The translations under genes and the position numbers were made by a program. Shown in pieces: positions 4,731 through 22,897 of a stretch of DNA of 64,000 nt (within the stretch, counting starts at the first letter, position 1; every line of letters begins with the position of its first letter). The notes under the pieces were generated by a model, which searched no databases, was not told where the DNA came from, and worked only from the letters and a program-made list of their open reading frames with translations. Source of the stretch: Rhodospirillales bacterium (GTDB lineage Bacteria; Pseudomonadota; Alphaproteobacteria; JAJFIK01); the NCBI GenBank assembly GCA_021775005.1, contig JAJFIK010000080.1:2014-66013 (forward strand). The letters run 5' to 3'.

Positions 4731-5257
4731 GAATCGAATTATATCAGATTCTAGCTGCCAAAAATATTAGCCAAGTATTGTATGGGAACTCAAATCAACA
4801 TTAAGGTGTTTGCAGTAGAGCGGCATCTTCGGGCCAATTTTAGCGGTTTAACTCCCTAGCCCAAACCCCCATTTCATCCCAAACTTGGTTCAAATTCTTG
4901 TTGGGATAGGACACCATTTCGCCAAACATTTGATTTTTCTCAGCTATTTGACTTCTCAGTTTGGTTCGTGAACAGAATAATTTGTGTGTTGCTTTGATTT
5001 TGCTTTGTTTTCCTGGTTCTAATCTCTTTAGGCTTAGGTTTATTGGGAACCTTGGAGAAGATATTGATGGATAGAAATGAACCGCGGCGCGTTCTACTGA
5101 TGACAGAGAATTGGCGCGGAACCGAAGAAGAAAAGTTAGACTATTTGGAACTTCTTTGGTGAGTGATGCAACAACTTGTTGATGATGCCTTTAGTGGCGA
5201 GGGATCGTCCAGTAGGTAATTTGTGGTATCCCGTGAACAAGTGTTTCATTTATTGAG

Positions 5258-6457
5258 CTAATTGAAGGAAAACCTATCCCGATTGGCGAGCGTCAACATT
5301 AGTTCTTTAAGTGGCGTGATCCAGATACCATTTGGAATTTGATAGGGCTCATTGCCTGGATAGACTATGTACCTGTGCTTGATTTTGAGGTCATCACACG
5401 CAATATGAAACCCCTTTCCTGCCTTAGGTGCCGAGGCACGTTTGATCTCAATGGCAATCTCTGGTTTTCCTCCCCGCTCTAGTACCAGATCAATTTCCGC
5501 ACCACTCTGTGTGCGGTAAAAATACGGCCTGTATTGGTGAACATTGTTCTCATCAATTAGATTTTCGATGACAAACCCCTCCCAGCTATTGCCCAAGACC
5601 GGGTGGCTCAAGAGATTCTCAATGTTTGAAATTCCCAGGAGAGCATGTAACAGCCCGCTATCGCGTATGTAAACTTTGGGAGATTTTACAAGTCGTTTTC
5701 CAATATTTCCATGCCAGGGTTGCAGTCGCCTCACAAGGAGTAGATCAACGAGAATGTCTAAATATCGAGCAATGCTTTGGCCACTAACGCCCAACCCTTT
5801 TGCAAGCGATGCCGCGTTGAGAATAGAACCCTGGTGATGAGCAAGCATTGTCCAAAATCGTCTTAGCGTTTCAGCTGGTATTCTAAATCCAAACTGAGGA
5901 ACGTCTCTTTCCAAATAGCTTCGAATAAGATCATTGCGCCATTGCAGACTGATATTATCATTGCTGGCTACAAGGCTTTCTGGGAAGCCGCCGCGTACCC
6001 AGAGTGTTTGCTCATCAGTTAATTGATTTTTTTGAGTTTCAATTTCTAGCAAGTCGATTCCTGAAAGCTCGGCATATGCAATGCGTCCAGCCAAGCTCTC
6101 ACTTGTCTGGTTGAGGAGTTCCAGTGATGCCGATCCTAAAAAGAGAAATTGACCTGTTTTCTGACCTTTTCGTCTCCGTCGATCAATGATTCCGCGCAAG
6201 GGAGCAAAGAGTTCTGGAAGGCGTTGTACCTCATCCAATATGATGAGTTGATCAGGGTACTGATCTTGGAAGAGCTCAATGTCTCTTACCTGATCCAGGT
6301 CACGAGGGTTTTCTAGATCTCGATAGATTGCGTTCTTTTTTTCTGCGATTTCGAGGGCAAGTGTTGTTTTCCCAATTTGCCTCGGTCCCATCAGAGCTAC
6401 CGTGGCATTGGTCTCAAGTAGGTATTTCAGGTGGTTTTCTAGCCGTCTTGGTATCAT
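5258..6457 (-). CDS. AAA+ superfamily ATPase with C-terminal DUF4143 (COG1373-type)
   Basis: Walker A GPRQIGKTT and Walker B IILDEVQ are present. The length (399 aa) and C-terminal region are typical of AAA_14+DUF4143 proteins. GC is low, continuous with the sulfotransferase islet. Confidence 0.7.
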   Translation of the reverse strand: MIPRRLENHLKYLLETNATVALMGPRQIGKTTLALEIAEKKNAIYRDLENPRDLDQVRDIELFQDQYPDQLIILDEVQRLPELFAPLRGIIDRRRRKGQKTGQFLFLGSASLELLNQTSESLAGRIAYAELSGIDLLEIETQKNQLTDEQTLWVRGGFPESLVASNDNISLQWRNDLIRSYLERDVPQFGFRIPAETLRRFWTMLAHHQGSILNAASLAKGLGVSGQSIARYLDILVDLLLVRRLQPWHGNIGKRLVKSPKVYIRDSGLLHALLGISNIENLLSHPVLGNSWEGFVIENLIDENNVHQYRPYFYRTQSGAEIDLVLERGGKPEIAIEIKRASAPKAGKGFHIACDDLKIKHRYIVYPGNEPYQIPNGIWITPLKELMLTLANRDRFSFN

Positions 6458-6509
6458 CCTTGAAATTATACCATGTTATGGAAGAAATGCAAGGATAAAA
6501 TATTTTCTA

Positions 6510-7256
6510 TCAGTCCTTCGAGCCGCCGAACGGGAATATGCTGGGCACGCGCCGCGCATAGTCGCGATATTTGTCGCCGAAGGCGTGGAGCAGATCACGT
6601 TCCTCATAGCCCACACCCACAAAGATATAGGCGGTCCAGATGGCGGCGAACAGCAGGTGGCCCGTCGTCATCAAGGGTGTGGCCCAGAAGAAGATGATCA
6701 TGCCGAGATACAAGGGATGGCGAACGACCTTATAAAGCAGCGGCGTTCTGAACTCGGACTCGGCCTGCGGCTTGCCGGTGAAGCGCGCCCAGACCTGCGC
6801 AAGACCAAAGAGCTCAAAGTGATTAATGAGGAACGTTGAGAGCAAAACCATCCCAACGCCCACGAAGAAGAGCACGAGCATGATCGTGCTCCACATCCCT
6901 GTTATTTCCCAAACCATTCCGGGCATGGGGATCCAATAGGCATAAAGGGCGAAAAGGATGAGCGCGGTCACCAAGACATAGGTGCTGCGTTCCACATTTG
7001 GTGAAACGAGTTTCGTAAGCACGCGCTTGAACCCTTGTCGGGCCATGACCGAGTGCTGCAGGCCGAATAGGAGCAACAAGCCGATATTGACCAGCGCCGC
7101 TGGCGCGCCAGCGAGCGGGGAGCTGCCGCTGTCAACGCTCTTGAGGCCATCAACAAACGGAAGCGCATCGCCGCCCACAAACACCACTAGATAAAGAAAC
7201 GAGGCGAAGAACAGGACATAGCAGACAACTCCATAGACCAAAGCAATGAACCCCAT
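6510..7256 (-). CDS. Membrane methyltransferase of the ICMT/PEMT (isoprenylcysteine carboxyl / phospholipid methyltransferase) family
   Basis: The protein is multi-TM with a C-terminal RHPLYLG...EE..L...FG..Y..Y family signature. The start was moved to MGFIAL (7256) because a GGAGGA RBS lies 5 nt upstream; the longer ORF reads through that RBS. Confidence 0.6.
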   Translation of the reverse strand: MGFIALVYGVVCYVLFFASFLYLVVFVGGDALPFVDGLKSVDSGSSPLAGAPAALVNIGLLLLFGLQHSVMARQGFKRVLTKLVSPNVERSTYVLVTALILFALYAYWIPMPGMVWEITGMWSTIMLVLFFVGVGMVLLSTFLINHFELFGLAQVWARFTGKPQAESEFRTPLLYKVVRHPLYLGMIIFFWATPLMTTGHLLFAAIWTAYIFVGVGYEERDLLHAFGDKYRDYARRVPSIFPFGGSKD

Positions 7257-16234: not shown

Positions 16235-16717
16235 TTATTCAGAAGAATGTGCGGTTTGGGGCAAGGGGATGCCGGAATAGGGAAGCACATTCCGCATCAC
16301 TACATTACTCACAATCTGGCCGACCCCCAGCTCTGGATGGTCGATAAGTGCCTCAGTGAGAACCTGATAGGCCTCAATGTCTTGCGCCATAAAGCGCACC
16401 AGATAATCGTATTGGCCGCTCAGCTCAGCGCATTCCACCACTTCAGGCAGGGATTTGAGGTGCGCTTCAAAATCTCGCTGGCCCTGGCGGCCGTGGCGCT
16501 CCAGCGCAATGAGGGCGAAAACCGTTAGCGGCCGTCCAAGTTTTTCCGGTTTTAGCACCGCGCGATACCCGGTGATAAAGCCTTCTGATTCGAGCCGCCG
16601 CACGCGGGTGTGGCAAGCGCTCGCTGAGAGACCAACTCGATCTGCAAGTTTTTGATTGGTTAGTCGTCCTTCGGCTTGAAGGGCGCTTAGTATCTTTAGG
16701 TCGATGCCGTCCAGCAC
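16235..16717 (-). CDS. Lrp/AsnC-family transcriptional regulator
   Basis: N-terminal HTH (DLKILSALQAEGRLTNQKLADRVGLSASACHTRVRRLE) followed by an RAM domain. It sits upstream of the rocD-arginase unit. Confidence 0.85.
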   Translation of the reverse strand: MLDGIDLKILSALQAEGRLTNQKLADRVGLSASACHTRVRRLESEGFITGYRAVLKPEKLGRPLTVFALIALERHGRQGQRDFEAHLKSLPEVVECAELSGQYDYLVRFMAQDIEAYQVLTEALIDHPELGVGQIVSNVVMRNVLPYSGIPLPQTAHSSE

Positions 16718-18210: not shown

Positions 18211-18354
18211 ATGACTGCTGGGTTCCGCCACCCTCGGGTGTGGCAAATAAATAATGAATGCCTGTTGATCCGACCCGGAAAACCAAATAGATGCGGGCGC
18301 CTGAGCCGTGTCAACGACTCAGCTAGTGTCCACCGGACCGGAAAGTGGAAGCAG

Positions 18355-19035
18355 ATGTCTGGAAACAATCCGTTTACGAGTTTGTTTGGCCGATCTCCCT
18401 TCAAACCCATTCAAGAACATATGCGCACCGTCAATCAAAGTGTTGTCGAAGTCGGCACGTTGTTTGAAGCGCTGTGTGCTGGTGACCGGGAGACTCTGAA
18501 AGCGACCCAACAGAAAATTTTCAAGTTGGAAAGCGAAGCCGACACAATCAAAAATCAGTTGCGTGCTCACTTGCCCAAAAGCCTTTTCATGCCGGTTGAT
18601 CGGCGTGACCTGCTTGAAGTTCTTGACTTGCAAGATTCCATTGCTGACACGGCGCAGGATATTGCAGGCCTTTTGGTCGAACGGGATATGCAAGTCATGC
18701 CCGGCATGGCTGAGCCGCTTATGGCACTGGTTCGTCGCAATATTGACGCAAGTGCGCTTGCAACCAAAATCATTGAGCGACTTGATGAGTTGGTGGAAAC
18801 CGGGTTTCGCGGACCAGAGTCCGATGCGGTGATCCAGATGGTGGATCAGCTCAACAAAATTGAAACCGATACCGATCGCATGGGCCTGGAGCTGGCCCGC
18901 AGCCTTTTCCTGCATGAGGATGAGATGAAACCCGTTTCTGTGATGATGTGGTACGACCTCATCTCCATGATCGGGAACCTTGCTGATTATTCTGAAAAAG
19001 TCGGAAACCGTTTGCGGTTGATGCTCGCGCGCTAG
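18355..19035 (+). CDS. DUF47/TIGR00153-family protein (PhoU-like accessory protein of PiT transporters)
   Basis: The helical-bundle, PhoU-like sequence is characteristically located immediately upstream of a PiT gene. Start at MSGNNPF (codon 49 of the ORF-track ORF). Confidence 0.8.
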   Translation: MSGNNPFTSLFGRSPFKPIQEHMRTVNQSVVEVGTLFEALCAGDRETLKATQQKIFKLESEADTIKNQLRAHLPKSLFMPVDRRDLLEVLDLQDSIADTAQDIAGLLVERDMQVMPGMAEPLMALVRRNIDASALATKIIERLDELVETGFRGPESDAVIQMVDQLNKIETDTDRMGLELARSLFLHEDEMKPVSVMMWYDLISMIGNLADYSEKVGNRLRLMLAR

Positions 19036-19058: not shown

Positions 19059-20327
19059 ATGGAATTTATTCAAGAGCACGGAACGCTCCTCATCATCATT
19101 GCGGTTATCTTTGGCCTCTACATGACCTGGGGCATTGGCGCGAATGATGTTGCAAATGTCATGGGCACGTCAGTTGGGTCTGGCGCGATTACGGTAACGA
19201 CCGCGATCATGATAGCGGCGGTCTTCGAATTCGCCGGTGCGGCGCTGGCTGGCGGTCATGTCACCGATACGATCAGAAAAGGCATCATTGATTCAGGGCC
19301 GCTTGAAAGCGCGCCTGAAATTCTTGTGCTGGGCATGCTCGCTTCGCTGCTTGCGGCCGCCATTTGGTTGATGGTCGCGTCTATGCGTGGTTGGCCGGTG
19401 TCAACAACCCATTCGATCGTCGGCGCCATTGTCGGGTTTGCCCTCGCCGCCATTGGGCTTGAAGCCGTTGATTGGGGGAAGATCAGCCAGATTGTGGCGA
19501 GCTGGGTGGTTTCGCCTGTGCTGGGCGGGATCATTTCTTTTGCCTTGATGATCAGTATTCGGCAATTGATTTTGAACACAGACAATCCCTTTGCCTCTGC
19601 AAAACGATGGGGGCCGATTTATGTGTTTCTTGTGGGTTTCATCATTTCACTTGTCACCATCTTCAAGGGGTTAAAGCATCTTGATATCGAACTCAGTGCT
19701 GGTTCGAGTTTCATTTTCGCGACAATTTTTGGATTGGCGACAGCGCTGATCGGATATGCGTTGATTCGCCGGGTTCAGGTGGACCCCGAGGCGGATCGCG
19801 ACTTTCACTACGCGAGTGTTGAGCGCGTGTTTGTCCCGATGATGATTTTTACCGCCTGCGCCATGGCTTTCGCGCATGGGTCAAACGATGTGGCGAACGG
19901 TGTTGGCCCGATGGCCGCAGTGGTCGGCCTTGTGCAGTCGGGCGGCGAGGTTGCGCAAAGCTCCTCGTTGCCGTTGTGGATCTTGGTCTTGGGCGGCGTG
20001 GGGATCGTTGTGGGTTTGGCGACCTATGGCTATCGCGTGATGCGCACCATCGGGTCCAAAATTACGGAGCTGACCCCGACGCGCGGGTTCTGCGCTACGA
20101 TGGCGGCTGCGGTGACCGTTGTACTTGCGTCCCGAACCGGAATGCCGGTTTCCACAACCCACATTGCAGTGGGCGGCGTTATCGGCGTCGGCATGGCGCG
20201 CGGGATCGGGGCCATTGATCTTCGCGTGATCGGCGGGATTTTCATGTCGTGGATAACCACGCTACCCGTTTCAGGCGGTCTATCCGCGATCATCTATTTC
20301 ATCCTGTATGCGATCTTCCTAGGCTAG
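19059..20327 (+). CDS. pit: Inorganic phosphate transporter, PiT (PHO4) family
   Basis: Duplicated GANDVAN/GSNDVANG signature motifs are present. The protein is about 420 aa and multi-TM. Confidence 0.9.
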   Translation: MEFIQEHGTLLIIIAVIFGLYMTWGIGANDVANVMGTSVGSGAITVTTAIMIAAVFEFAGAALAGGHVTDTIRKGIIDSGPLESAPEILVLGMLASLLAAAIWLMVASMRGWPVSTTHSIVGAIVGFALAAIGLEAVDWGKISQIVASWVVSPVLGGIISFALMISIRQLILNTDNPFASAKRWGPIYVFLVGFIISLVTIFKGLKHLDIELSAGSSFIFATIFGLATALIGYALIRRVQVDPEADRDFHYASVERVFVPMMIFTACAMAFAHGSNDVANGVGPMAAVVGLVQSGGEVAQSSSLPLWILVLGGVGIVVGLATYGYRVMRTIGSKITELTPTRGFCATMAAAVTVVLASRTGMPVSTTHIAVGGVIGVGMARGIGAIDLRVIGGIFMSWITTLPVSGGLSAIIYFILYAIFLG

Positions 20328-20341
20328 ACCGGGAGCTGCGT

Positions 20342-22396
20342 TCAGAGCTCGACCGTCTGATTGATGTATTTAAGGGCGGGTTCGGGGACGAATTCCAGCG
20401 GTGTCGCGCGCCCGGCCTTGACCACCATGGCGCCAAAGCGATGGGTGTAGGCGGAATAGATCACGTGATGACCTTTGATCCCTCCGGCGTCCCACCACAC
20501 GGTCTCATCCACAGATAGGGGTGTGTGTCCGACGATGAACGGTGCCTTTTTGGGAAGCCCCAAGGTGCTCCGGAAGCGTTTAACGCTGCCCTTGAAATAT
20601 CCCGCTGGACGATTGCTCTGGCGCAACCGGTTCCAAATAATCTCATGCTGAATCCCTGGGTAGCGATTGATATTGACCAGCATTTTGCGATCAACGCGAG
20701 ATCGAACCGGCGCGCCATGGCAAGCGGCAAACCCATTTCCTTCCACGATGTATGCCAAGCCATCAAAAAGCTTTTCAACCTCTTCAGCGTATTCCTCACC
20801 TCTTCGTTTCTCGAGGTGTTTTTTGAGAAGCAGGCCCTGGGGCACGCCGCTCTTGCCGACGGCATATGAGAATGTTTCGTGATTGCCACGAACGTAGAAG
20901 ACGTTTTTTGGGAAGCGCTGTTTCAGCATGCAGAAGAAATCGAGCATGAAGAGTGTGGGCTCCATTTCCTCGATTTGATCCGGTTCCTCAGAGTGAACCA
21001 TGTCACCTAGAAAAACGAGACAGGCTTTACCTTCCTCCAATTGTGAAAGCGTCCCGCCTTCACCGAGGACACGAAGGACATTGTCGACTTGGGCATGGGT
21101 ATCCCCAAGCAGGACGACGGTGGCGTCATCGGGCAATTTGATGATGCCGCCCGGTCGACCGTCGTCGCCCCATTCGCGGTGGGCTTCATCGGCAATGATG
21201 GCATTGGTCGCAACGATGGCCTTCAGCGCTTCATCCGTTCCAAAAGTCACCAACGGGCAACCCAGTATTTTGGGAATGCGCATAAGGGTTTCATGCCGGG
21301 CGACCCAAGCCGCCCGCGGCAGGCTTAATGTCGACAGTGTAGTTGAGTGCGCGTGGTCGAGGGGGTGGATGGTCAACTCGCCCCGCCGGTTGGTAATCCG
21401 CACGTGGCGTTCCGCAACGGAATCGTTAAAGCCAAGTGTGCTTCGGTACGCCCCCTTGCTGTTACCAAGAATGATGGTCTTGCCCGCGGGTACCCTGATG
21501 AAACGGGGAACGTCCTCATAAAACGCGTTGCCGGAGTGGATTATCCATTCGCGGTCACCGACAAGAGGCGCTCCTGTCAGGGACCGGTCTGGATGAAATT
21601 CTATAGCCACGCCCCCAAGGCGCATTTGAAAGGGCTCCCCCGACCAGCCTATGCGGCATGGCCCGGCCAGCGTTTGCGGCGCGGCGGCGGGTTGGATCAA
21701 CTCCCCTTCGCGCGCGTGACGCACGACGGCGTCCAATCGCGCAAGCAGGGTGGGCTTCACCGCAGAAAGCGGCGGCGGCGCCTTGCGACATTCAATGATA
21801 TTCATGGGCGGGCCATCGCGCTGGGTCCGCACATAGACATTCATACCCGACAGCCAAAAGTACCAAGCGATGGTCCGATAAAAATCAATCTGGGCGCGCA
21901 CCAGGTCGAGCGAGACACCTTCGTCATGGGGAAAGAGACCGGTTTTGGCGCGGCGTTGCCGATCTTCAAAAACTTCCTCGGCCGGCGGCAAGATCATGTC
22001 GAAGGTGTATCTTGTGCGCCAGTTAACACCGAACAACCACTTTTTCTGCGGCGGGATGGCGACCCGGTCAAAATCCATTTCAAGTGAGGCGAAATTCGCT
22101 TTCCATTCGCTGTCAATGACAGCAAGGGATTGACGCTCCCCTTTGAACGGCGCGCCAAGGTGAACCTCGCGCGGCCTGAATGTAAGCTCCCGCATCAACC
22201 ACCAGTGCGGCAGGGTGAGGTCGATATAGGCCTCATACGGCCAGCCGCGCATTTTAGCGACAAGCGTGCTTTTTCCTGCGCCAGGCGGTCCTGTGATCAG
22301 AAACTGGCGGTATCTTGTTTCCTTCGGGAATTGCACCCCGTGGATAAGCCGCAGGTCCGCGATAGGCGCAAGGATCATGTCTTCCGCTGAGATCAT
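20342..22396 (-). CDS. Uncharacterised three-domain protein: N-terminal P-loop NTPase (kinase-like), central FHA-like segment, C-terminal calcineurin-like (PPP-family) metallophosphoesterase
   Basis: Walker A ITGPPGAGKST. Central FHA-like pattern IILGNSKGAYRSTLGFNDSVAERHVRITNRRGELTIHPLDHAHSTTLS. C-terminal LGDTHAQ / FLGDMVHSE / RGNHE / GHTP motifs match the GDxHG-GDxxDRG-GNHE phosphoesterase signature. An AGGG RBS precedes the ATG at 22396. Confidence 0.6.
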   Translation of the reverse strand: MISAEDMILAPIADLRLIHGVQFPKETRYRQFLITGPPGAGKSTLVAKMRGWPYEAYIDLTLPHWWLMRELTFRPREVHLGAPFKGERQSLAVIDSEWKANFASLEMDFDRVAIPPQKKWLFGVNWRTRYTFDMILPPAEEVFEDRQRRAKTGLFPHDEGVSLDLVRAQIDFYRTIAWYFWLSGMNVYVRTQRDGPPMNIIECRKAPPPLSAVKPTLLARLDAVVRHAREGELIQPAAAPQTLAGPCRIGWSGEPFQMRLGGVAIEFHPDRSLTGAPLVGDREWIIHSGNAFYEDVPRFIRVPAGKTIILGNSKGAYRSTLGFNDSVAERHVRITNRRGELTIHPLDHAHSTTLSTLSLPRAAWVARHETLMRIPKILGCPLVTFGTDEALKAIVATNAIIADEAHREWGDDGRPGGIIKLPDDATVVLLGDTHAQVDNVLRVLGEGGTLSQLEEGKACLVFLGDMVHSEEPDQIEEMEPTLFMLDFFCMLKQRFPKNVFYVRGNHETFSYAVGKSGVPQGLLLKKHLEKRRGEEYAEEVEKLFDGLAYIVEGNGFAACHGAPVRSRVDRKMLVNINRYPGIQHEIIWNRLRQSNRPAGYFKGSVKRFRSTLGLPKKAPFIVGHTPLSVDETVWWDAGGIKGHHVIYSAYTHRFGAMVVKAGRATPLEFVPEPALKYINQTVEL

Positions 22397-22407
22397 GCAT
22401 CCGCCCT

Positions 22408-22445
22408 AAAGCAAAACGGAGCGGTGAACAATCCGTTCCCGCTCC
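22408..22445 (-). terminator. Putative intrinsic terminator downstream of gcrA
   Basis: On the minus strand GGAGCGG...CCGCUCC forms a 7-bp stem, with an inner GAAC/GUUC pairing. It is followed by GUUUUGCUUU. Confidence 0.45.
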
Positions 22446-22450
22446 CTGCG

Positions 22451-22897
22451 TTAAAGGATGCGGACCTTGCGCTTTTCGCGGCGGGCTTGTGCCGGCTGAA
22501 ATGCCATCCGGGCATGGCCCTCGCAATAAGGTGAGCCTGCGTTGGATGGGCGACCGCAAAACCGGAAGTCGGGCTGGGTCGGATCACCGATGGGCCACTT
22601 ACACATGCTTTCGGTCACCGTCATCACAGTGGCGTATTGACCGTTTTCAAGCACCACAGGTTCTTCAACCACGATGGGCTTGGTCATCACCGGCTTGGCC
22701 TGGGGCTTTGGCATGGTGATGCGTTTGGGCCGGTCAGCCCGTGATGGTGAGCCGCGGCCCGAGAGGCCCAGACGGTGCACTTTGCCGATCACTGCATTGC
22801 GCGTGACCCCGCCCAATTGGCGCGCGATCTGACTGGCGCTGAGCCCTTCGGCCCAAAGTTTTTTAAGTTCCGCTACCCTGTCGTCGGTCCAGCTCAT
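22451..22897 (-). CDS. gcrA: Cell-cycle transcriptional regulator GcrA
   Basis: N-terminus MSWTDDRVAELKKLWAEGLSASQIARQLGGVTRNAVIGKVHRLGL is the conserved GcrA DNA-binding domain. The C-terminus has the conserved CxxPxxxGxPYCxxH segment. Length is 148 aa. Confidence 0.85.
   Translation of the reverse strand: MSWTDDRVAELKKLWAEGLSASQIARQLGGVTRNAVIGKVHRLGLSGRGSPSRADRPKRITMPKPQAKPVMTKPIVVEEPVVLENGQYATVMTVTESMCKWPIGDPTQPDFRFCGRPSNAGSPYCEGHARMAFQPAQARREKRKVRIL

Follow-up and report, generated by a model that had tools for sequence, protein, structure and literature searches.

The window analyzed here, a 64,000-nt stretch of a Rhodospirillales contig, carries on its minus strand a three-module gene (P-loop, FHA-like, and PPP phosphatase; 20342..22396) that reads from an ATG start to a stop codon at 20342..20344 and encodes a protein of 684 amino acids, as recognized from the open reading frame, its homologs, and an AlphaFold (AF2) model. 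Full-length homologs of 35% to 76% identity (E=0 to 1e-122) and a mean pLDDT of 90.3 for the model argue that this gene is real and not a chance open reading frame. Convergent with it on the plus strand lie pitR (18355..19035; 226 aa; Pfam PF01865, E=9e-52), encoding a PhoU_div/DUF47 accessory regulator of Pit, and pitA (19059..20327; Pfam PF01384, E=3e-119), encoding a low-affinity phosphate transporter of the PHO4 family, with 14 nt between the stop codons of pitA and the three-module gene. The longest open reading frame of pitR begins at 18211; the start at 18355 is the one that fits its homologs and the Pfam match. The upstream neighbor on the minus strand is gcrA (22451..22897; Pfam PF07750 (GcrA), E=7e-51).

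The spacer between gcrA and the three-module gene contains a hairpin and a U-rich tract (22408..22445, minus strand) that look like an intrinsic terminator or attenuator: a bulged stem of 11 bp (22418..22445; −22.9 kcal/mol, z=−3.3 versus shuffles) is followed by GUUUUGCUUU, with the U-rich tract at 22408..22417. A simple terminator scan did not list this hairpin although folding found it, probably because the stem is bulged. A Shine-Dalgarno-like AGGG follows on the same strand (22404..22407), 7 nt 5' of the ATG. The hairpin with its U-tract and the AGGG ribosome binding site had been described in the initial annotation and are borne out by sequence and folding, as is the position of the gene closely downstream of gcrA; the strand of the gene had not been given there. 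The spacer measures 54 nt (22397..22450). A consensus scan found no promoter. A search of the window for PhoB boxes (CTGTCAT-N4-CTGTCAT, up to 3 mismatches) gave 2 matches, both distant from the genes and below the number expected by chance, and thus no evidence for Pho-regulon control.

The N-terminal P-loop module of kinase class (aa 1 to 207; 21776..22396, minus strand) carries the Walker A motif ITGPPGAGKST at aa 34 to 44, which matches GxxxxGK[ST] and in which G36, G41, and K42 of G36-P-P-G-A-G41-K42-S43 are invariant among 25 diverse sequences. Invariant in the family are also W52, D59, W65-W66, P75, E77, and H79 (the latter three in the acidic/Arg motif RPRExH), P115, and R149; R146 is nearly invariant and sits together with R149 in a lid-like helix. 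This conservation of K42, D59, E77, H79, R149, and R146 speaks for catalytic competence. The fold is that of a kinase-type P-loop as opposed to GTPase, AAA+, or ABC proteins, and the nearest structural neighbors are dNK, TMPK, AK, the Pnkp kinase, and PPK2; HprK/P and other known P-loop protein kinases are absent among the 60 structural matches listed. Identification by sequence-only searches (Pfam, NCBIfam, PADLOC, PDB phmmer, and profile hmmsearch) was tried and yielded Walker A alone: what Pfam, NCBIfam, and PDB sequence searches returned stayed below cutoff and spanned no more than the length of this motif, anti-phage defence models of PADLOC matched only at its level (E>=0.011), and no named family (PPK2 PF03976, dNK, TMPK, Zeta, AAA_33, or others) came up in Pfam, NCBIfam, or PDB searches. 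Lacking a Pfam or NCBIfam family, the module could define a new family of P-loop kinases. A second homolog search with its profile returned fused or standalone forms and no new informative fusion among the 120 matches listed; in other relatives, the module is joined to GAF sensor domains.

The middle module (aa ~228 to 366; 21299..21715, minus strand) contains the pattern LGN...DSVAERHVRI...LTIHPLDHAHSTTLS at aa 310 to 355, and the AF2 model is all-beta in this part, with a short helix besides 10 beta strands between aa 232 and 356 (pLDDT about 87 to 94); FHA domains are beta-sandwiches of eleven strands. The Pfam FHA model (PF00498) scores the window protein below its gathering cutoff (13.5 versus 20.7 bits, E=0.1), and this failure of single-sequence detection called for profile–profile comparison with the true FHA domains of related proteins. 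An hhalign comparison of the middle-module profile to FHA segments of P0181, P0173, and P0195 gave 93.9% (E=1.5e-7, 69 columns), the top PDB profile match is an FHA domain (1uht, E=0.29), and Pfam FHA matches at E<10 occur in 6/16 family members (best E=0.0025). On these profile comparisons, the module is a homolog of genuine FHA domains, albeit a degenerate one from which the canonical phosphothreonine contacts are gone. The structural FHA residues G311, H331, and L341 are retained, but the positions that would contact phosphothreonine hold N312 (for the Arg of GR), A328 (for the Ser of SxxH), and H350 (for the Asn of NG). Across the family, the GR position is Arg in 26 of 47 sequences, the SxxH position is Ala in 37 and Ser in only 3 of the 47, and the NG position is variable. 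Since the Ser and Asn that bind phosphothreonine are gone, and the window protein lacks the Arg as well, a classical reading of phospho-epitopes is unlikely. Related phosphatase modules bear Pfam-significant FHA domains, which in P0181 lie directly upstream of the phosphatase in the same order, so that FHA-PPP is a recurring supermodule; this recurrence and the GAF-fused P-loop variants point to signaling. Of two functions suggested in the initial annotation, the phospho-Ser/Thr signaling module is the closer one, but reading of epitopes through the FHA domain is at odds with the lost residues.

The C-terminal part (aa ~367 to 684; 20345..21298, minus strand) consists of a helical linker and a PPP-type metallophosphatase module with the motifs LGDTHAQ (430 to 436), FLGDMVHSE (462 to 470), RGNHE (503 to 507), and GHTP (623 to 626). 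Pfam PF00149 matches at aa 426 to 594 with 38.6 bits (cutoff 21.5 bits; E=2e-9), and the module has the fold of a PPP catalytic core, closest to eukaryotic-type (PP1/PP5-like) protein phosphatases. D432, H434, D465, N505, H506, H560, and H624 occur without exception in the 46 sequences covering this region. The catalytic His506 and all six metal ligands of PPP enzymes thus show no variation in the family, and the catalytic centre is intact. Motif II, aligned to GDYVDRG, reads GD(M/A/L)VH468-S469-E470 and not GDxVDRG; H468 does not vary, and Arg never occurs at position 469 (S in 32/46). K602 occupies the inferred position of PP1 R221, and the stretch R590 to R609 forms a basic loop on the substrate side. 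The loss of the DRG arginine and this basic loop would also suit a polyanionic nonprotein substrate, e.g., polyphosphate. All motifs on which the initial annotation had based its three modules are found in the translation, and each module was verified: the P-loop kinase-like module by Walker A and its kinase-type fold, the FHA-like segment by hhalign to genuine FHA domains, and the calcineurin-like phosphoesterase by PF00149, the metal-ligand motifs, and the PPP core fold. The family, whose order of modules the initial annotation did not recognize as described, is unnamed, and a full-text search of the literature found no description of it; a preprint on Accumulibacter dark matter mentions only PhoU-like Pit accessory proteins.

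The family comprises about 1,000 protein clusters and occurs in 322 species genomes, with members in Alphaproteobacteria, Desulfobulbia, and Gammaproteobacteria. Many carriers belong to sediment sulfur-cycling lineages, and the system may thus be relevant to phosphorus cycling in the environment. At 61 of 86 loci, the P-loop module and FHA-PPP form one fused protein, and at the other 25 the P-loop module is encoded by a separate adjacent gene (with a 4-nt overlap of the two genes in L001), so that the two are fused or adjacent throughout (86/86) and their coupling is obligate. Such a pattern of fusion and fission is typical of parts that work together.

Linkage to pitR-pitA is near-universal and extends across bacterial phyla. 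Among the 60 of 86 loci that retain 3 kb or more of sequence to either side, pitA lies within 2.5 kb of the target gene in 59 and pitR in 58; the single flanked locus without Pit (L024) shows high-GC ORF noise. The target gene is convergent with pitR-pitA in Alphaproteobacteria, Desulfobulbia have target>pitR>pitA, Gammaproteobacteria have pitR>pitA>P-loop>FHA-PPP, and three distant relatives (29% to 32% identity) keep the four-gene unit in three further orders. One apparent operon in L090 has pitR-pitA in the middle and the genes for FHA-PPP and P-loop on either side. Glutamate-synthase-like, PBP1A, and MutL neighbors in Desulfobulbia were considered and judged to be housekeeping synteny. Experiments support PitR as an accessory regulator that functions only with its cognate PitA (PMC13170248), which makes a further regulatory layer on the pair plausible. 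These data are best explained if the functional partners of the three-module gene are the convergent pitR-pitA rather than gcrA.

The reading that we tentatively prefer is a kinase/phosphatase switch on Pit-dependent phosphate and polyphosphate homeostasis that would dock to PitR/PitA via the FHA-derived module. The three-module protein would reside in the cytoplasm, where its P-loop kinase-class module would use ATP to phosphorylate a target and the PP1/PP5-like binuclear-metal phosphatase would take the same phosphate off again. Docking would fall to the FHA-derived module, which would recruit the phosphatase to a protein partner, probably independently of phosphorylation given that the classical phosphothreonine pocket is lost; the most plausible partner would be PitR or the side of PitA that faces the cytoplasm. 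The phosphorylation state could then gate Pit-mediated flux of Pi (metal-phosphate) or signaling by PitR and set the balance between free Pi and polyphosphate. We infer that both catalytic modules act on one substrate in opposite senses and that this substrate belongs to the proteins of the Pit system; which way regulation would run is conjectural in the same way. Points for such a switch are the identities of the modules, their invariant catalytic residues, their coupling, and the Pit linkage in varied gene orders. Against a protein-directed switch, the structural neighbors of the N-terminal module are kinases of small molecules, nucleotides, polynucleotides, and polyphosphate; linkage to three unrelated polyphosphate synthases (PPK1, PPK2, and VTC) suits a metabolic role equally well, and the PhoB-box search of the window gave no match near the genes.

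The likeliest alternative is an enzyme of polyphosphate or phosphoanhydrides whose PPP module would be a polyphosphatase and whose P-loop module would be a polyphosphate- or nucleotide-directed phosphotransferase (PPK2/adenylate-kinase-like), with the released Pi and metal passing PitA under control of PitR; we consider it rather unlikely. At 15 alphaproteobacterial loci, the target gene is preceded on its own strand, by about 100 nt, by a PPK1 gene (within 2.5 kb at 16/25), a position comparable to that of ppx next to ppk in the E. coli ppk-ppx operon; the window itself has no ppk1 anywhere in its 64 kb. PPK2 is found near the target gene at 11/25 alphaproteobacterial and 1/6 gammaproteobacterial loci, the L090 operon also holds a VTC-domain and DUF4956 pair and a phosphate porin, and genes for Na/Pi cotransporters and CNNM/CorC (Mg2+) are often nearby, with Na/Pi-PhoU transporter genes likewise adjoining family genes in Gammaproteobacteria. 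The strongly basic substrate-side loop, the missing protein-phosphatase arginine of DRG, and the largely sediment sulfur-cycling carriers fit this explanation, and yeast Ppn2, a Zn2+-dependent endopolyphosphatase of the PPP superfamily, is a precedent (PMC7381174). However, none of 53 Desulfobulbia loci has a polyphosphate kinase within 8 kb, leaving pitR-pitA alone as the constant neighbors. It is also not evident why a polyphosphate-degrading enzyme should need an obligately coupled kinase or an FHA-derived domain for docking to proteins, the phosphatase fold is nearest to eukaryotic-type protein phosphatases, and the N-terminal module is without Pfam PPK2 signal. By analogy to PPIP5K/Vip1-SPX logic, the modules might alternatively make and destroy a phospho-metabolite that reports Pi or energy status and is read by PitR/PitA or, via PitR, by PhoR. 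The likeness of the N-terminal module to nucleoside and nucleotide kinases (with Walker A, RPRExH, and the lid-like R146/R149), its GAF-fused variants, and the strict coupling to a PhoU-like regulator and its transporter would agree with this, and a kinase and phosphatase on one polypeptide are typical of futile-cycle signal generators (PFK2/FBPase2 and PPIP5K). Given that proteins are the substrates suggested by the FHA-derived domain and by the PP1/PP5-like fold, we nevertheless regard such a messenger as very unlikely.

The initial annotation had also proposed a nucleic-acid repair enzyme, i.e., a 5'-OH polynucleotide kinase with 2',3'-cyclic/3'-phosphoesterase that heals ends like bacterial Pnkp or mammalian PNKP, and this is not supported. 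The three modules fill all 684 residues and leave no ligase/adenylyltransferase, no Hen1 or ligase neighbor was seen among the loci inspected, the conserved neighbors are phosphate transport and polyphosphate genes, and PADLOC gave no match, which together make end healing highly improbable. Compared to C. thermocellum Pnkp (kinase-phosphatase-ligase), the window protein has neither a ligase domain nor a Hen1 partner; it has an FHA-like insert between its modules, a phosphatase much nearer to PP5/PP1, and a phosphate transport context. The phosphatase of mammalian PNKP is of HAD and not PPP type, and its order is FHA–HAD phosphatase–kinase, whereas here it is kinase–FHA-like–PPP phosphatase. 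We give almost no credence to a cell-cycle-linked signaling module co-regulated with gcrA. It would draw on gcrA lying 54 nt upstream on the same strand in the window and likewise in L002/L003 and L006, but a survey of homolog loci found this adjacency at only 4/86, all from close relatives (64% to 68% identity), and found no gcrA within 8 kb at any of the loci from Desulfobulbia and Gammaproteobacteria. The adjacency is therefore lineage specific and lies outside the conserved unit, the strong hairpin and U-tract part the two genes, and the regulatory context earlier drawn from gcrA fails.

Returning to the putative kinase/phosphatase switch on the Pit system, its closest parallels in logic come from protein phosphorylation. 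The threonine-phosphorylation pathway of type VI secretion (PpkA/Fha1/PppA; reviewed in PMC10482370) is a kinase–FHA–phosphatase control of a membrane machine, and the present family similarly couples a predicted kinase, an FHA module, and a putatively opposing phosphatase genetically to a membrane system. Unlike that pathway, it has a P-loop and not a Hanks kinase, a PPP and not a PP2C phosphatase, and an FHA module without phosphothreonine pocket, often all on one polypeptide, and the system that would be controlled here is a phosphate transporter. HprK/P, AceK, and the PPDK/PEPS regulatory proteins combine opposing phosphotransfer in one protein to control the state of one target, and both HprK/P and PSRP use P-loops for it; the likeness to these bifunctional regulators lies in the putative opposing activities within one protein. 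Compared to eukaryotic-type PPP phosphatases (PP5, PP1, PP2A, and calcineurin; PF00149), which have GDxVDRG, the window protein holds H-S-E in place of DRG, so that it lacks both the Arg that binds phosphate and the Asp that pairs with the catalytic His, with Lys at the inferred R221 and a basic loop instead of the acidic WSDP region of PP1. Its phosphatase module is moreover bacterial, fused to FHA-like and P-loop modules, and linked to pitR-pitA. Like Ppn2, this module is of the PPP superfamily; Ppn2 mobilizes polyphosphate/Pi, and the three-module family is repeatedly linked to polyphosphate synthases, but Ppn2 is vacuolar, eukaryotic, and without kinase or FHA module.

PhoU-type accessory proteins are known to be essential for bacterial sensing and limiting of cytoplasmic phosphate, and PitR has been recognized only recently as a Pit-specific regulator (PMC13170248). 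The three-module protein shares the functional neighborhood of PhoU-Pst, PitR-PitA, and the NptA-PhoU domain treated there, yet it has no PhoU-like helical bundle and would be an extra catalytic component that the same work does not mention. Its encoding with pitR-pitA in hundreds of species suggests a post-translational or enzymatic control of Pit flux that is missing from current models. More broadly, we think it quite unlikely that a dedicated kinase/phosphatase device in the Pit-PitR unit of several phyla writes and erases a phospho-signal on PitR/PitA or a small-molecule messenger and so sets phosphate and polyphosphate levels. If true, prokaryotes would have their own version of the PPIP5K/SPX logic of eukaryotes, assembled from P-loop kinases of a new family, an FHA module blind to phosphorylation, and a eukaryotic-like PPP phosphatase. 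Since the carriers include the cultured Desulfopila aestuarii DSM 18488 and Desulforhopalus singaporensis DSM 12130, the hypothesis is directly testable.

The gene at 20342..22396 (minus strand), which starts with ATG, is supported by its open reading frame, its homologs and an AlphaFold2 model. Full-length homologs of 35-76% identity (E=0 to 1e-122) and the model, which was built from an alignment of 47 sequences and reaches a mean pLDDT of 90.3, show that this ORF is a real gene. Its 684-aa product is modelled as three modules joined by short linkers, with pLDDT below 50 only at residues 210-215, and every motif that the initial annotation quoted was found in the translation at the position given. 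Homologs were collected by a word-indexed search (47 clusters), an exhaustive search (615 representatives at 50% identity) and a profile search with the N-terminal module (976 clusters at 90% identity). Among 185,579 species-representative genomes, 322 encode relatives, with carriers in Alphaproteobacteria (including Rhodospirillales, Hyphomicrobiales, Methyloligellaceae and Geminicoccales), Desulfobulbia (including Desulfocapsa, Desulforhopalus and Desulfopila) and sulfur-oxidising Gammaproteobacteria (Sedimenticolaceae, Chromatiaceae and one tubeworm symbiont), plus one relative from Acidobacteriota. Their public names are just "hypothetical protein", "metallophosphoesterase", "predicted phosphodiesterase" or "serine/threonine protein phosphatase". 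We found no counterpart of this architecture and of its linkage to the phosphate transport genes described below in Pfam, NCBIfam, PADLOC or the literature that could be searched. The family is indeed undescribed, as was first suggested; it combines known kinds of parts in a new way and is not categorically new.

The N-terminal module (residues 1-207), modelled by itself with pLDDT 95.6 and pTM 0.91, is a kinase-class P-loop domain outside all named families. Across 25 diverse members, G36, G41, K42, W52, D59, W65, W66, P75, E77, H79, P83, P115 and R149 are invariant, and R146 and D158 nearly so. By position, D59 at the end of the strand following the P-loop helix, the RPRExH motif and the Arg-rich helix 139-152 appear to resemble the acidic residue, DR(Y/H/S) motif and LID arginines of the kinase class, and this likeness suggests that the module probably catalyses phosphotransfer. 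The same module is also found fused to a C-terminal GAF domain with a hydrophobic tail or to an N-terminal DnaJ domain (proteins P0146, P0164 and P0171, assigned to locus L086; P0152, P0167 and P0170, assigned to L089). None of these fusions has pitR-pitA nearby in the two contexts seen, so the module is apparently reused in other settings, sensory or chaperone-linked.

The middle module (residues ~228-366) is all-beta in the AlphaFold2 model. Taken as a single sequence, that of the window scores below the Pfam FHA cutoff (13.5 versus 20.7 bits); Pfam FHA is matched by 6 of 16 family members, with no rival families. The best PDB profile match is an FHA domain (1uht), and comparison of the module profile with genuine, Pfam-significant FHA segments of related proteins gave 93.9% probability (E=1.5e-7). 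In the register of the profile alignment to true FHA domains, the structural residues Gly311 and His331 are kept and the phosphothreonine contacts are not: among 47 sequences, the SxxH Ser is replaced by Ala in 37, the NG Asn position is variable, and the GR Arg is kept in just 26, being Asn in the window protein. These comparisons identify the module as an FHA homolog, yet one that neither reaches the Pfam cutoff nor passes the test for phosphothreonine-binding residues.

The C-terminal module (residues ~367-684) matches Pfam Metallophos above cutoff, and the best 50 Foldseek matches listed are all PP1, PP2A, PP5, PPZ or calcineurin; judged from the model, it is a PPP phosphatase at fold level. 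The six metal ligands show no variation, nor does the catalytic His506. In motif II, an invariant His468 and then Ser-Glu stand where PPP enzymes have DRG, and the tail thus fails the PPP-specific GDxVDRG test. Later motifs were matched to PP1 by manual alignment, which places Lys602 at the inferred position of PP1 R221; the WSDP-region loop, acidic in PP1, is strongly basic here (R590, R592, R596, K602, K606, R607 and R609). Homologs of this module also lie within very long multidomain proteins (P0139 with 7186 aa, P0172, P0173, P0181, P0190 and P0195) that also bear true FHA domains, Peptidase_M48, HATPase_c or UPF0489; P0139 matches it in five separate stretches, and in P0181 an FHA domain immediately precedes the phosphatase, which is also the order in the window protein.

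P-loop and FHA-phosphatase (FHA-PPP) modules are separable. They are fused in 61 of 86 loci, and in the other 25 a P-loop gene (~205-230 aa) lies immediately upstream of an FHA-PPP gene (~485-500 aa), the two overlapping by 4 nt in one locus (L001). Neither occurs without the other in any of the 86 loci.

Their constant neighbours are pitR (18355..19035, plus strand), encoding a PhoU_div (DUF47) regulator, and pitA (19059..20327, plus strand), encoding a PHO4-family low-affinity phosphate transporter. Both flanks reach 3 kb or more in 60 loci. Pit lies within 2.5 kb in 59 of these and PitR in 58; the only one without pitR-pitA beside the fused gene is a Thalassospiraceae MAG (L024; gene at 4979..7030) of high GC and noisy ORF calls. 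In Alphaproteobacteria the gene is convergent with pitR-pitA, in Desulfobulbia it precedes pitR and pitA on one strand, and in Gammaproteobacteria the order is pitR, pitA, P-loop, FHA-PPP. The four-gene unit is also present, in other orders again, in three relatives of just 29-32% identity: FHA-PPP convergent with P-loop, pitA, pitR and CNNM (L092); pitA, pitA, P-loop, FHA-PPP, pitR, pitA (L094); and Porin_O_P, VTC domain, DUF4956, FHA-PPP, pitR, pitA, P-loop (L090). That the linkage has outlasted repeated rearrangements in several phyla strongly supports a functional tie between the protein and Pit-type phosphate transport. In contrast, gcrA (22451..22897, minus strand; Pfam GcrA E=7e-51), which the initial annotation had taken as its anchor, adjoins the gene only in the window, L002/L003 and L006, which are closely related and make up 4 of 86 loci. 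The 54-nt spacer between the two holds a bulged 11-bp hairpin (predicted -22.9 kcal/mol, z=-3.3 versus shuffles), followed by GUUUUGCUUU and then AGGG 7 nt before the ATG. At the other end the gene converges on pitA, with 14 nt (20328..20341) between the two stop codons. No classical terminator for either was detected there; a short inverted repeat is present, GAGCT...AGCTC, which overlaps the gene's own stop codon.

The protein is more loosely tied to polyphosphate metabolism. PPK1 is encoded ~100 nt ahead of the gene, on its strand, in 15 alphaproteobacterial loci (within 2.5 kb in 16 of 25), and PPK2 is nearby in 11 alphaproteobacterial loci and one gammaproteobacterial locus; none of the 53 Desulfobulbia loci has a polyphosphate kinase gene within 8 kb. 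Na/Pi cotransporters, some with PhoU domains, occur in 6 of 6 gammaproteobacterial and 7 of 25 alphaproteobacterial loci, and tandem CNNM/CorC genes in 13 loci.

PitR is an experimentally established accessory regulator; it controls the Pho response and cellular Pi, but solely together with its cognate PitA (PMC13170248). To judge by sequence, the kinase-class and phosphatase modules have intact catalytic residues, the phosphatase being closest to protein phosphatases; together with the FHA-derived docking domain and obligate coupling to pitR-pitA, they would make up what a switch based on reversible phosphorylation typically consists of. We therefore propose, at somewhat less than even confidence, that the protein may set the phosphorylation state of a Pit-system component, which would tune Pi flux and the Pi/polyP balance.

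The main rival, a distinctly weaker prospect, is that the phosphatase is a polyphosphatase and the P-loop module a polyP or nucleotide phosphotransferase. The PPP-superfamily endopolyphosphatase Ppn2 offers a precedent (PMC7381174). Links to PPK1, PPK2 and VTC, a location after ppk1 like that of ppx, a substrate loop rich in basic residues, the loss of the DRG arginine and the small-molecule kinases among the nearest structural matches of the N-terminal module all point this way; however, the Desulfobulbia loci lack any polyP gene, and the FHA domain and obligate kinase are left without a reason. A small-molecule messenger cycle read out by PitR seems improbable. Neither nucleic-acid end healing nor a gcrA or cell-cycle role is supported. 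Of the first reading, the three-module structure stands, and its repair and gcrA framing should give way to phosphate and polyphosphate homeostasis with PitR-PitA. The family is widespread, uncharacterised and open to testing, in a field with open mechanistic questions; its substrate and activity are inferred.

Several loci carry further neighbours. In L090 (3020..10196), the gene of a distant relative shares an apparent operon with genes for DUF4956, a bacterial VTC-domain protein and the phosphate-selective porin Porin_O_P. Eukaryotic polyphosphate polymerase has a catalytic domain of the VTC type, and the locus resembles a bacterial polyP module of this type combined with the Pit, PitR, FHA-PPP and P-loop genes. 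Sedimenticolaceae/Chromatiaceae loci (L034, 1166..14844; L052) form a phosphate island of two CNNM/CorC genes, PPK2, pitR, pitA, P-loop, FHA-PPP, a Na/Pi cotransporter, Usp and a Na/Pi-PhoU fusion; upstream, L052 also has a gene resembling cofactor-independent phosphoglycerate mutase and one for a protein with an ATP-cone and a P-loop. At L004/L005 5037..5704, the Desulfobulbia homolog is preceded by an ABC1/UbiB kinase and by small genes that match PapZ_C (PF22740) and, weakly, Phasin. In the window, a 493-aa TPR protein with a C-terminal putative 2OG-Fe(II) oxygenase domain (PF13759; 16729..18210, plus strand) lies between an AsnC-type regulator (16235..16717, minus strand) and pitR; since these two are just ~315 nt apart in the syntenic L002, this ORF looks like a lineage-specific insertion. 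The longest pitR ORF runs from 18211 (274 aa), homologs have 226 aa, and Pfam PhoU_div begins 9 residues past the Met at 18355, which is probably the true start and would leave a 144-nt leader (18211..18354) after the oxygenase gene.
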